Shown here piece by piece: positions 41,141-48,254 of a DNA stretch of 64,000 nucleotides (position 1 is the stretch's first letter; the number at the start of each line of letters is the position of its first letter). A program made the translations under genes and the position numbers. The notes beneath the pieces are model-generated. The model made no database searches, was not told where the DNA came from, and saw nothing but the letters and a program-made list of their open reading frames with translations. The stretch lies in the sequence record PQ567651.1. One strand, given 5' to 3'. The DNA comes from Escherichia phage cardinal.

Positions 41141-42025
41141 ATGTTTGCTAAAAATTTCAAATCTTGCGTAACCCTGATTTCTGGTGATGGTCTGTCTATT
41201 TCCGCACTGAACACAGTAACAGACAAACCGCTGGATTTTGTTGTGGCACAGGGTCAACAAGCACATACCATTGGTCTTGTTCGTTTTGAAGATGATGGTT
41301 CCTATGTAAAAGTGTTCTCTGGTTTAGAGGTTATTAAAGTAGGGCAATCTGTTAAGAAAGTTAACAAGAAAAAAGTTAAACGCATTCTTAATGAAAAACT
41401 CCAAGAGATGGAACAAGAGTTTATTGCTGCAAATCCTACTAAAGAATTCTTCTTGGACAAAGAAAGTAAAAAAGCAATTGAGGCTGATATCGTGTTTTCT
41501 CTGCTCCCAGAAACAGAGGCAGATGATTTCTATAACTATGTTGTTGTAGACACTGAAAACAGTATTACCTACGTTCTTAATGGTTCTAAGAAAATTAGTG
41601 AAGATATTGCTGTATTTCTTCGTGAGGTGTTGGGTACTTTCCCAGTCCTGCCGTTTAGTGTACACGAAGAAGCCATTATTAAAGGTTTTGATACCATCTT
41701 AGAAGAACATGAGGCTGAACGACTGACCCTGGGTAATTATATTAAACTTGAAGATTCGGAAGGTGTGGTTGTATGGAGTAAAGAGTCCCTTTATGAATCT
41801 CGTGCAGTAGAACTTATGGAAGATGGTAAGCACGTCGTTGCCATTGGTCTGGAATATGACGGCTTCGTTAACTTTATTGTTGATAAAGAATTTAAGTTGA
41901 GTGGTATTAAATTCCCTAAATACTTTAATGATGAAGAAGGATCTTTTGAAGCATCTGTCCTTCTGTGCTTTAATGAAATCCGTGGTATTATGCAAGACCT
42001 TATCAAGTCAACTATTCAAAAATAA
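41141..42025 (+). CDS. RdgC-like recombination-associated protein
   Basis: 294 aa; IVFSLLPETEADDFYNYVVVDTENS and LGTFPVLPFSVHEE resemble E. coli RdgC segments as I remember them. Confidence 0.5.
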   Translation: MFAKNFKSCVTLISGDGLSISALNTVTDKPLDFVVAQGQQAHTIGLVRFEDDGSYVKVFSGLEVIKVGQSVKKVNKKKVKRILNEKLQEMEQEFIAANPTKEFFLDKESKKAIEADIVFSLLPETEADDFYNYVVVDTENSITYVLNGSKKISEDIAVFLREVLGTFPVLPFSVHEEAIIKGFDTILEEHEAERLTLGNYIKLEDSEGVVVWSKESLYESRAVELMEDGKHVVAIGLEYDGFVNFIVDKEFKLSGIKFPKYFNDEEGSFEASVLLCFNEIRGIMQDLIKSTIQK

Positions 42026-42028
42026 TAC

Positions 42029-42058
42029 TTGACTTACTAATTTAATATGTGTTAATAT
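42029..42058 (+). promoter_or_regulatory. sigma70-like promoter TTGACT-N18-TAATAT
   Basis: Read directly; followed by a strong hairpin and T-tract before the SD. Confidence 0.4.
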
Positions 42059-42086
42059 GCCTACCTACTCAGTTAGGTGGGCTTTT
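42059..42086 (+). terminator. rho-independent terminator/leader hairpin
   Basis: GCCTACCTA-CTCAGT-TAGGTGGGC followed by TTTT, immediately before AAGGAG and ATG at 42100. Confidence 0.5.
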
Positions 42087-42099
42087 AAGGAGACACACC

Positions 42100-42312
42100 A
42101 TGAAAAAACTTCTTGTCGGTTTACTTTTAGTAATCAGTTCTTATTCTTATGCTGGTCAAATAACTTTAATTAATTCTGGAGAACAAGTTTCTGGAAGTAC
42201 AAAATACTGTTTTTACTCTAACGGTATGTACGACAAGGTTATAGAGGTTTCTGCAAGTCGTCAGTGTCCCTACACACGAACATTCTCAACAGAGAGTTCA
42301 GATGATGAATAG
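42100..42312 (+). CDS. small secreted protein (signal peptide)
   Basis: MKKLLVGLLLVISSYSYAGQ... signal peptide; ORF track start 42049 lies upstream of the RBS. Confidence 0.45.
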   Translation: MKKLLVGLLLVISSYSYAGQITLINSGEQVSGSTKYCFYSNGMYDKVIEVSASRQCPYTRTFSTESSDDE

Positions 42313-42320
42313 GAGGTAAT

Positions 42321-43439
42321 ATTAGCGGTTACATTTTAATCCAACCGGAAGACCTGCACAAATATGTTGACGAGAACACAATTCTTGCAATAGACTACGA
42401 TCAAGTGGCGTTCCAAGCGGCTTCAGCTTTAGAACAAAGAAAAATCCACGCTGTACACAAGGCTTCCGGTAATGTAAAAGAGTTTGAAACAAGAACAGAT
42501 TTTTGGGGTAAATCTTCAAAAAATATTGGAGGATGGTTAGGAGCACTTAACGCGCAACGCGAAGCTGCTGGTAAGAAGTTGTTCTCCAAGGAAGATTTTG
42601 AAATAAAAGATGTTCAAATAGTCCCAGAGAATATTTCTTTTACGTTTCAAGCTGCAAAGACAAAAATAACCCAGATGGTGGATCACCTAAAACTTCAAAA
42701 GTATTGCGGTGTCATCGGGGTAGGAAAAACCTTCCGGCATTCTTTCAAAATGCCAAAAGAATATAAATCAGAACGATCAGATTTAAGACCAATCCAATTA
42801 TCAGATACTAAAGATTATCTAGTTGAAAAACATAACGGTGACGTTGTTACTGGTATTGAGGCAGATGATGCTTTAGAAATCTATGGATATGCAGGGTATA
42901 AAGCCTACAAGGAAACTGGTAAGTTTTCTCATATTGTAGCATCTATCGACAAAGATAGCTTACACACACCAAGTTTACTCTTTAACTTTTATAAAGAGGA
43001 TGGTGTTTATAAAAATCCTTGTGTTATTCTGATTGATGAATCTATCGGTGATATCTGGATCGTAGAAAAAGGTAAGAAAAAAGAAGTTAAGGGTTGGGGT
43101 AGTTACTGGTTAGCTTATCAAATGCTAATGGGCGATAAGACAGATAGTATTCGACCTTACCAAGATTTCGATGTTAAGTTTGGAGATATTACTTGCTTTA
43201 ATCTTATTTCCAAATGTAAAACACAGGCTGAACTTTTTCAGACAGTTAAAGATCAGTATTATGAATGGTTCCCAGATGGCGTTAAATTTACTTCTTGGGA
43301 TGGTGAAGAAGTAGAAATGACAACTGATGAATGGATAGAGACAATTTTTCAGTTGGTATATATGAAACGTTGGGCGAATGATGAAACAACTTTTGAAAGT
43401 ATGCTACAAGCATATATTTCAGAGCAGGAGGAACATTGA
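42321..43439 (+). CDS. rnh: RNase H / 5'-3' flap endonuclease (T4 rnh-like); start codon uncertain
   Basis: VTGIEADDALEIYGY is the GxEADD 5'-3' exonuclease motif; the conserved N-terminal TILAIDYDQVAFQAAS (compare T4 ICLIDFSQIALSTAL) lies upstream of the only canonical start, GTG 42405. Confidence 0.6.
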   Translation: MSGYILIQPEDLHKYVDENTILAIDYDQVAFQAASALEQRKIHAVHKASGNVKEFETRTDFWGKSSKNIGGWLGALNAQREAAGKKLFSKEDFEIKDVQIVPENISFTFQAAKTKITQMVDHLKLQKYCGVIGVGKTFRHSFKMPKEYKSERSDLRPIQLSDTKDYLVEKHNGDVVTGIEADDALEIYGYAGYKAYKETGKFSHIVASIDKDSLHTPSLLFNFYKEDGVYKNPCVILIDESIGDIWIVEKGKKKEVKGWGSYWLAYQMLMGDKTDSIRPYQDFDVKFGDITCFNLISKCKTQAELFQTVKDQYYEWFPDGVKFTSWDGEEVEMTTDEWIETIFQLVYMKRWANDETTFESMLQAYISEQEEH

Positions 43440-44398
43440 GTAAATTAACAGACGAACAGAAAGCCTTGATTGTATCTATGAAAGCACAAGGTTATTCTTC
43501 GCGTAAGATTGCACAAGAGGTGTTGGGAAGTTCTACTAAGAAGAGCACAGTAAATGATTACTTAGCTCGTGTAAATTCACCACATCGCGGTGCTCCGCAA
43601 GATAAAGGTGGGCCAGTAATTAAAATTATTGACGTAGAGACAGCACCGGAGATTGTGTATAGCTTCTCACGTTTCAAAGCCTTTATTGCACCTGAACAAG
43701 TTATTCGTCGAGGTTACTTGCTTTCCTATTCCTCTGCTGATTTAGAAACAGGGGAAGTAGAAGGTAAGAACCTTAGCAATTACCCTTTGTTTGACATAGA
43801 TCATACAGATGATTGGGAATTATGTCAAGATCTCTGGCACTTGCTTGATGATGCAGATATTGTGATCGCGCACAATGGTATTAAGTTTGATAAGGCTTAT
43901 ATTAACCAACGTTTTGCTTTTCACGGTATGGAGCCACCATCACATTACGTTGTAATTGATACACTCAAGGCAGCTAAGAAGCAGTTTGCACTACCTTCTA
44001 ATGCGATTAAAGAAATGTGTTTGTATTTTGATACAGAAAACTTTAAACTTGATAATGAAGGTTTTCCTTTGTGGAAAGCATGTTGTGAAGGAGATAGACA
44101 TGCCTTCTTCCGTATGCAAACATACAACGATGGTGATGTTGTTTCTCTTCGAGATCTTTACATCAAACTTCGTGCATGGATTCCACAACATCCTAACGTA
44201 TCTGCATTCTATGACGATGAAAAACTTCGTTGTCCTCGTTGCGGTAAAGAGCACCTTGAAGTTGTTCCTGGTAAGGTTTACACAACAGCGGTTAGTACAT
44301 TCCAAGTGCTAAGATGCACATCATGTAATAGCCTGTCTCGTGGACGTGTTAATTTGCGTAGCAAAGAGAAGCGTGTAAACACTGTTATTGGAATTTAA
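43436..44398 (+). CDS. DnaQ-like 3'-5' exonuclease with N-terminal helix-turn-helix and C-terminal zinc ribbon
   Basis: 320 aa; IIDVETAP (Exo I, DxE), HNGIKFD (Exo II), YNDGD (Exo III), CPRCG...CTSCN. Confidence 0.55.
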   Translation: MSKLTDEQKALIVSMKAQGYSSRKIAQEVLGSSTKKSTVNDYLARVNSPHRGAPQDKGGPVIKIIDVETAPEIVYSFSRFKAFIAPEQVIRRGYLLSYSSADLETGEVEGKNLSNYPLFDIDHTDDWELCQDLWHLLDDADIVIAHNGIKFDKAYINQRFAFHGMEPPSHYVVIDTLKAAKKQFALPSNAIKEMCLYFDTENFKLDNEGFPLWKACCEGDRHAFFRMQTYNDGDVVSLRDLYIKLRAWIPQHPNVSAFYDDEKLRCPRCGKEHLEVVPGKVYTTAVSTFQVLRCTSCNSLSRGRVNLRSKEKRVNTVIGI

Positions 44399-44402
44399 TA
44401 AA

Positions 44403-44428
44403 AAAGGGGCGAAAGCCCCTTTATTTTT
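44403..44428 (+). terminator. rho-independent terminator (repeated element AGGGGC-GAAA-GCCCCT)
   Basis: AAAAGGGGCGAAAGCCCCTTTATTTTT; same hairpin recurs at 55142. Confidence 0.6.
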
Positions 44429-47843: not shown

Positions 47844-48254
47844 ATGTCACTAATTAATACAACCATTTGGGCGACCGTAAGTATGTCTACCATTAAGGCT
47901 ACACCGATCTGGAAAGAAATGGCTAAAAAACACGGAGGAAAAATTCCTCACGAGTATCATAACACTACATTGCGAGCAGCATTAGTAATGCTTGGTATGT
48001 CTACCGATGGACATTATACAGTAGAACGTGGTGTTAATATTCGTAGTAACAACAATCGACGTGTGGTGTTTGCAAATACTACATTGTATACTTTCCCAGT
48101 TCGACAAGACTATAAATATAAGCGAATCTATCAAGGTGTAGATATTTTGCACTTTGGAGAAGAAGATTTTACAGGTTGGGGTAGCTCTCATATCAAAATG
48201 GAAGACTTCGGAAATGAACATGATCCATCACGAGATGATGATTCTGAATTCTAA
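47844..48254 (+). CDS. hypothetical protein
   Basis: 136 aa. Confidence 0.4.
   Translation: MSLINTTIWATVSMSTIKATPIWKEMAKKHGGKIPHEYHNTTLRAALVMLGMSTDGHYTVERGVNIRSNNNRRVVFANTTLYTFPVRQDYKYKRIYQGVDILHFGEEDFTGWGSSHIKMEDFGNEHDPSRDDDSEF

Follow-up and report, generated by a model that had tools for sequence, protein, structure and literature searches.

A flap-endonuclease-like gene of phi92-like phages with a probable AUU start, at a position that drifts among AUU, AUC and AUA across its clade

Initiation of translation at near-cognate codons is already known, and only two natural non-canonical starts are listed as confirmed in Escherichia coli, those of infC and pcnB, both of them AUU (bioRxiv 10.1101/063800). 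The first gene encodes initiation factor 3 (IF3); its AUU is provided with a Shine-Dalgarno (SD) sequence and follows 3 nucleotides (nt) after the stop codon of thrS. The second encodes poly(A) polymerase I, and there the AUU start limits the yield of an enzyme acting on nucleic acids (Binns & Masters 2002, as cited in PMC3592434 and bioRxiv 10.1101/063800). Here we analyse a gene for a 5'-3' exonuclease or flap-endonuclease-like protein in a stretch of 64,000 nt from Escherichia phage cardinal (PQ567651.1), the whole of which we call the window. We propose that its translation very probably starts at an AUU codon, at position 42321. Judging from sequence comparison, what would be unusual in this case is not the near-cognate start as such, but its drift among AUU, AUC and AUA within a whole clade; natural AUC or AUA starts are not among the confirmed E. 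coli cases (bioRxiv 10.1101/063800).

The window is a genome of a phi92-like E. coli phage (Justusliebigvirus, Stephanstirmvirinae), whose positions 42000-43500 are 99.1-99.8% identical to ESCO32, muut, PaulScherrer and phi92. The nuclease gene is phi92 gp085, labelled 'putative 5'-exonuclease' in the phi92 record. Its relevant features, all on the + strand, are as follows.

42311-42317, + strand: Shine-Dalgarno sequence AGGAGGT, able to pair over 7 nt with the 16S rRNA 3' end (from the sequence)
42321-42323, + strand: proposed initiation codon ATT (AUU), 3 nt (AAT) after AGGAGGT and 4 nt after GGAGG
42324-42404, + strand: 27 codons absent from database annotations, holding the predicted first core beta-strand, Asp25 and Asp27 (alignment, model, codon statistics)
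42405-42407, + strand: GTG, the start in public annotations, read here as internal Val29 (related lineages have ATC, ATT, ATA or GTT)
42321-43439, + strand: nuclease, revised coding sequence (CDS) of a 5'-3' exonuclease / flap-endonuclease-like protein, 372 codons and TGA (translation, AlphaFold (AF2) model, Foldseek, PHROG 107)

The frame of the nuclease is closed by TGA at 42306-08 and open from 42309. It reads ATA GGA GGT AAT ATT AGC GGT TAC ATT TTA ATC CAA CCG GAA GAC CTG and continues CAC AAA TAT GTT GAC GAG AAC ACA ATT CTT GCA ATA GAC TAC GAT CAA GTG, so that no ATG, GTG or TTG occurs in frame from TGA 42306 until GTG 42405. The first-pass annotation of this DNA had pointed to this gap, and also to the perfect AGGAGGT placed 3 nt before ATT 42321; re-reading of the sequence bears out both. 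The segment ILAIDYDQVAF, with the conserved aspartates, is encoded at 42381-42413, and its D25 (42393-95) and D27 (42399-401) both lie 5' of GTG 42405, just as had been claimed. The product translated from ATT 42321 would have 372 residues and begin with Met-Ser-Gly-Tyr-Ile-Leu if ATT is decoded as Met.

For comparison, orthologous loci were drawn from annotated phage genomes, IMG/VR and metagenome contigs, with three contigs looked up in addition. While a single-protein scan of viral contigs gave 6 loci only, alignment-based scans widened the set, and the final clade comprises 23 lineage representatives, down to about 47% protein identity, including Phapecoctavirus and many uncultured lineages. 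Such an alignment of orthologues had been named as a check in the first-pass annotation, and its outcome agrees with AUU initiation: an SD followed by ATH (H being A, C or T) is present in 22/23 representatives, which exceeds what chance would give. The codon aligned with ATT 42321 is ATT in 8 representatives, ATC in 9, ATA in 5 and TTG in 1, and it is never ATG or GTG. In every lineage the aligned start is preceded, at 3-4 nt, by a strong SD (AGGAGGT, AGGAGGA, AGGGGGA, AAGGAGGT or GGGAGG), and 23-24 codons consistently separate that start from the first Asp. In a neighbour-joining tree the ancestral start codon of the clade is ATT; the tree needs at least 8 changes of the start codon, of which 7 are among ATT, ATC and ATA and one is to TTG, with none to ATG or GTG. 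Outside the clade, Vequintavirinae orthologues have the same short spacer and an aligned start that is TTG (rV5-like phages, Henunavirus), GTG (Seunavirus) or occasionally ATG, and more distant homologues start with ATG.

The codons after ATT 42321 evolve like coding sequence. Column entropy at the three codon positions, summed over 26 codons around the first Asp, is 13.9/10.8/31.8, and pooled pN/pS (nonsynonymous to synonymous) is 0.30 for the 22 codons preceding the first Asp. Residues past the start are kept with synonymous changes: close lineages read I-(S)-G-Y-I-L-I, distant ones I-[ST]-x-x-F-x-T-I-[SP]. At position 3-5 they have an aromatic residue in common with orthologues of canonical start, whose N-termini read MGYP (Seunavirus and related lineages), MSREYP (rV5-like) and MNYE (in one lineage, L117). 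These observations bear on the simplest alternative, namely that the gene starts at GTG 42405 as annotated, the preceding 96 nt being a leader that is not translated and is open by chance. GTG 42405 is indeed the first canonical start, and it is used by every Justusliebigvirus record examined except that of phage PATM. However, no SD precedes it, and the phi92 record itself remarks 'No RBS identified; weak Prodigal statistics' (RBS, ribosome-binding site). The position is occupied by ATC, ATT, ATA or GTT in related lineages, GTG being absent in the sister genus, and in 14/23 distinct 5' regions, the window included, the first canonical in-frame start comes 4-119 codons past the first Asp. The supposed leader shows substitutions of coding type, and both the first core strand and two aspartates invariant in the family are encoded in it. 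We therefore regard a start at GTG 42405 as very improbable.

The first-pass annotation had left open a sequence error instead of an unusual start. This option is refuted: the 60 nt around the start occur with 100% identity in 48 independent phage records, and 128 records conserve them. An error is also ruled out by compensating variation in more than 20 diverged lineages.

The start might still be another near-cognate codon of the extension, ATT 42333, ATC 42339 or CTG 42354. At codon 7 (42339) nearly all lineages have ATH and L116 has ATG, and in L166 and L167 an ATG is found 9 codons past the ATH. All three candidates are nevertheless without an SD, the sole one being that 3 nt before 42321. 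Moreover, CTG 42354 is CTT, CTA or TTA in relatives, and residues 2-6, which such a start would leave out, are kept with synonymous changes, their aromatic residue matching the N-termini of canonically started orthologues. A start at one of these codons thus seems unlikely. The three lineages just named (L116, L166 at 274-303, and L167) keep the SD and ATH and have in addition an in-frame ATG 6-9 codons downstream, without an SD, which gene callers pick; they may represent dual initiation or a transition back to a canonical start.

Further evidence on where the protein begins comes from stop codons. In L101, L103, L012/L024 and L107 an in-frame TAA stands directly 5' of ATC, in the arrangement ...AGGAGGAxTAA ATC GGY TAC..., and therefore no in-frame upstream sequence can belong to the protein in these lineages. 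This matters for the possibility that the nuclease is fused to the upstream open reading frame (ORF) by programmed frameshift or stop read-through. In its favour, the upstream stop lies just 8 nt before ATT, and in L010 and L022 both ORFs are in one frame with a single TAG between them. The frame relation nevertheless varies: it is different in the window and the same in L010, and L012, L101, L103 and L107 each carry two in-frame stops. The upstream gene changes as well, from one for a signal-peptide protein in the window to one for a DNA methyltransferase in L166. With no constant frame relation, double stops and a changing upstream gene, we rejected such a fusion, whose probability we consider practically negligible.

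What the N-terminal extension contributes can be seen from the family to which the protein belongs. The extended protein matches PHROG 107 'exonuclease' at 6e-61. In Pfam the window protein has no significant match to any family, and none to PF02739 or PF01367 even at E<=1; its homologues P0039 and P0040 fall below the gathering threshold, and only the distant homologue P0091 passes it (PF02739 and PF01367). A phmmer search of the PDB with the window protein gave no match. A profile of 12 homologues does detect plastid exonuclease 1, the match covering the EADD/DKD and GDxxDN motifs. Comparison by hhalign with P0091, which itself aligns with the 5'-nuclease domain of Taq polymerase and so relates these motifs to that enzyme too, has a probability of 99.8 and places AIDYD upon LVDGD, that is, residues 3-8 at the extreme N-terminus of P0091.

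An AlphaFold (AF2) model built on 27 sequences has a mean predicted local distance difference test score (pLDDT) of 91.7, and its first core strand spans residues 21-25, with D25 at the end. The top Foldseek matches of the model in the PDB all belong to the flap endonuclease (FEN) family: plastid exonuclease 1, E. coli ExoIX, Mycobacterium smegmatis Pol I and T5 D15. Foldseek probability is 1.0 to 9l55, 3zdc (ExoIX) and 5hmm/1xo1 (T5 D15), with E down to 8.6e-5, and the predicted fold is the PIN-like alpha/beta one of 5' nucleases. These matches, together with that to P0091, uphold the FEN-like assignment of the first-pass annotation. T4 RNase H, with which the segment had been compared there, is absent from the top fold matches.

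In a 12-sequence alignment with identity down to 23%, the residues D25, D27, E180, D182, D210, D212, G271, D272 and D275 are invariant, and their spacing appears to be that of the carboxylate clusters of FEN nucleases. Judging by topology and motifs, D25 would correspond to the Asp that comes first among the catalytic residues in T5, T4 and Taq. The likeness to the FEN 5' nucleases (T5 D15, T4 RNase H, ExoIX, the 5'-nuclease domain of Pol I) would thus comprise the fold, E180-x-D182, D210-x-D212, the helix-hairpin motif G271-D272-xx-D275 and the Asp at the end of strand 1. Unlike these enzymes, the window protein carries an insertion of about 100 residues that separates the first Asp motif from the remainder of the domain, and its PHROG group is 107. 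Because it has no match above the Pfam threshold and yet is linked by profile-profile comparison and predicted fold, the nuclease would form a divergent subfamily of the FEN / 5'-3' exonuclease family. According to the model, starting the protein at GTG 42405 would remove its first strand and, with it, an Asp of the active site that is invariant.

Several points weigh against AUU 42321 as the start. ATT, ATC and ATA all encode Ile, and their interchange would also be expected of an ordinary elongation codon; only the lineages with the flanking TAA break this ambiguity. In the window initiation might, though less probably, take place at the next Ile codons, 42333 and 42339, both without an SD. 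The first few residues may be dispensable, given the ATG 6-9 codons after ATH in L116, L166 and L167, and residues 1-10 of the model have a pLDDT of 82, somewhat below the rest. The reported yield of AUH initiation is low and may fall short of what the nuclease requires. Finally, our literature search found no N-terminus, ribosome-profiling or reporter data for any member. We still hold the AUU of position 42321 to be very probably the start, as the first-pass annotation had proposed; it is favoured by the geometry of the SD, the flanking TAA, the coding pattern, the upstream position of D25 and D27 and the loss of GTG in sister lineages.

The start signal was also compared with others in the window, where GGAGG occurs at 72 sites. 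At 31 of these a canonical start follows within 14 nt and begins an ORF of 50 codons or more, and the commonest spacing from GGAGG to start among them is 4 nt (10/31), the same as for ATT 42321. The GGAGG at 42312 is the only site without a canonical start which opens an ORF of full gene length (372 codons) from a near-cognate codon; the few other near-cognate sites open ORFs of just 52-103 codons. Among window ORFs of at least 100 codons, an SD with a near-cognate codon before the first canonical start is found only in the nuclease and in ORF 32327-30543 (- strand), where an ordinary ATG follows 2 codons past the near-cognate codon. No further AUH-initiated genes were found within the window. 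At 47934-47945 (+ strand) an ATT stands 4 nt after GGAGG and opens 103 codons; it is probably internal to a longer gene. The RNA fold around the nuclease start is unremarkable (z = -0.91; 38/200 shuffled sequences fold as well), and a start mechanism based on structure was dropped.

A possible mechanism of initiation would combine two sources of ribosomes with a weak codon. The strong AGGAGGU would place the 30S subunit on AUU 42321, 4 nt after GGAGG, where initiator fMet-tRNA would pair with AUU, the third position being mismatched. The UAG of the upstream ORF overlaps the SD and lies 8 nt before AUU, and re-initiation by ribosomes that terminate there probably adds to initiation. Across lineages the upstream ORF ends 0-21 nt before ATH, often with UAG overlapping the SD. 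The strong SD and adjacent upstream termination would in this way deliver ribosomes to a deliberately weak codon. In E. coli, initiation at AUU, AUC and AUA reaches about 1-2% of that at AUG, and for an AUC construct mass spectrometry found Met at the N-terminus (bioRxiv 10.1101/063800). In another reporter the yields of AUU and UUG were 6-8 times below that of AUG, and at the infC junction (UAA GGU AUU) the yield with AUU was a quarter of that with AUG, about equal shares coming from re-initiation and from de novo initiation (PMC3592434). Start codons that are not canonical are selected against by IF3 (PMC9723500).

By analogy with pcnB and infC, we suggest that the weak codon is probably kept by selection, holding a potentially harmful nuclease at a low level and/or making it sensitive to IF3. 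The likeness to pcnB lies in an AUU start that would limit the yield of an enzyme acting on nucleic acids, the role of dosage in the phage being drawn from this analogy. For pcnB, which belongs to the host, one start codon is known, whereas in the phage clade the codon drifts among AUU, AUC and AUA. The comparison with infC, made in the first-pass annotation, holds in part. Codon and nearby upstream stop agree (UAA GGU AUU in infC, TAG..8 nt..AUU in the window, TAA AUC in relatives). The autoregulatory loop does not carry over: infC is autoregulated since its product IF3 discriminates against AUU, while the phage nuclease is not IF3 and would at most respond to it passively. The weak canonical starts in Vequintavirinae and the TTG of the downstream exonuclease would, we infer, fit the same low-dosage logic.

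AUH initiation might alternatively need a component encoded by the phage, such as an unusual tRNA(CAU) at 27150-27228 with a C1.C72 mismatch. Initiator tRNA is distinguished by three G:C pairs in the anticodon stem and by A11:U24. The window holds 16 tRNA genes, three of them for tRNA(CAU), and the one in question begins 5'-CGCGGGA like E. coli tRNAfMet and has 1:72 unpaired. It is, however, without the full set of the three anticodon-stem G:C pairs and, in our own reading, without A11:U24. Its anticodon is still CAU, nothing ties it to the nuclease gene, and E. coli alone initiates at AUH codons (bioRxiv 10.1101/063800). We consider such a need highly improbable. The tRNA cluster spans 26928-29796 (- strand), and its 16 genes include tRNA-Ile(GAT) besides the three tRNA(CAT). 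The tRNA(CAT) of 27150-27228 is 79 nt long, with C1.C72 unpaired, 1/3 initiator anticodon-stem G:C pairs and T at position 73; it may be an initiator, an elongator Met or an Ile2 tRNA.

A related, more speculative idea is an infection-specific switch, in which AUH would become efficient only after the fidelity of initiation is altered, either through titration of IF3 or through the phage initiator-like tRNA(CAU). Nuclease production would then be timed by the start codon. We regard this as quite improbable, and keep to the plain reading of AUU 42321 as a weak start.

The nuclease belongs to a closely packed, co-directional string of four genes (RdgC-like, gp086, nuclease, DnaQ-like 3'-5' exonuclease), the other members of which are listed here.

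41141-42025, + strand: RdgC-like gene, first of the four-gene string
42100-42312, + strand: upstream gene, homologue of phi92 gp086, encoding a small signal-peptide protein (phi92, ESCO32 and PaulScherrer annotation; sequence)
43436-44398, + strand: DnaQ-like 3'-5' exonuclease gene, with a TTG start overlapping the nuclease stop (aTTGA)

The TAG stop of the gp086 homologue (42310-12) overlaps the SD of the nuclease, and its reading frame differs from that of the nuclease. In proteins of the gp086 type the stop codon usually begins at the T of tAGGAGG, and an acidic C-terminal tail (..SSDDE, ..DEDDE) is found in nearly all Stephanstirmvirinae-like lineages. No terminator was found between gp086 and the nuclease, and promoter-like matches in this region are no more than in shuffled sequence. 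At the other end, the DnaQ-like gene has AGGAGGA 3 nt 5' of its TTG 43436, within the last codons of the nuclease; this TTG is a second weak start in the same string. A perfect 8-bp GC-rich hairpin, AAAGGGGC GAAA GCCCCTTT, is located at 44403-44422 and has a terminator-like score on both strands. Directly 3' of the DnaQ-like gene, it probably marks the end of the rdgC-gp086-nuclease-dnaQ-like unit.

The nuclease gene is present in about 130 Stephanstirmvirinae genomes of the phage collection (55 at >=95% and 77 at 60-90%), and its annotation there is uneven. Most Justusliebigvirus records examined start the CDS at GTG 42405, and vB_Eco_PATM (OX090893.1) starts it further downstream still. The PATM record also carries an antisense CDS of 74 aa, at 42322-42546 (- strand) of the window or 423-647 of its locus L164, named 'putative exonuclease [ESCO13]', which is evidently a spurious blastx artefact of the missing start. 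Phapecoctavirus records (anhysbys, UP17, the 229-aa clusters P0027 and P0032) start at an ATG 143 codons past ATT, with a loss of about 40% of the protein; two such late-start CDSs are located as follows.

L004, 842-1531: Phapecoctavirus late-start CDS
L161, 742-1431: Phapecoctavirus late-start CDS

The N-termini given by gene callers are accordingly ragged (MHLYV, MIKPED, MVIDYDQ, MEKR, MAFQ, MPxEYKSER), with lengths of 229-373 residues. Among 54 annotated records compared, none besides ESCO13 has a nuclease CDS that covers the start region. In the record of this phage (Phapecoctavirus, KX552041.2) the orthologue ESCO13_00118 / AQM50955.1 is annotated from the same ATT and with an RBS feature; it is a single record, from the sister genus, and the ESCO13 paper makes no mention of the start (PMC5374246). 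Our search of the literature on phi92, ESCO13 and phage exonucleases found no paper describing an ATT/AUU start of the gene.

If translation indeed starts at AUU 42321, nearly all records give a shortened protein, which lacks 28 residues in phi92-like phages and about 143 in phAPEC8-like ones. Expression of the annotated ORF would yield a protein missing the first strand and an invariant active-site Asp, and callers limited to ATG, GTG and TTG would give misleading N-termini for such genes in general. The phages that carry the gene grow on E. coli K-12, so the case is readily testable. If it is true, the nuclease of these phages would be a natural case in which selection for a weak start is seen with unusual clarity, including natural AUC and AUA starts.

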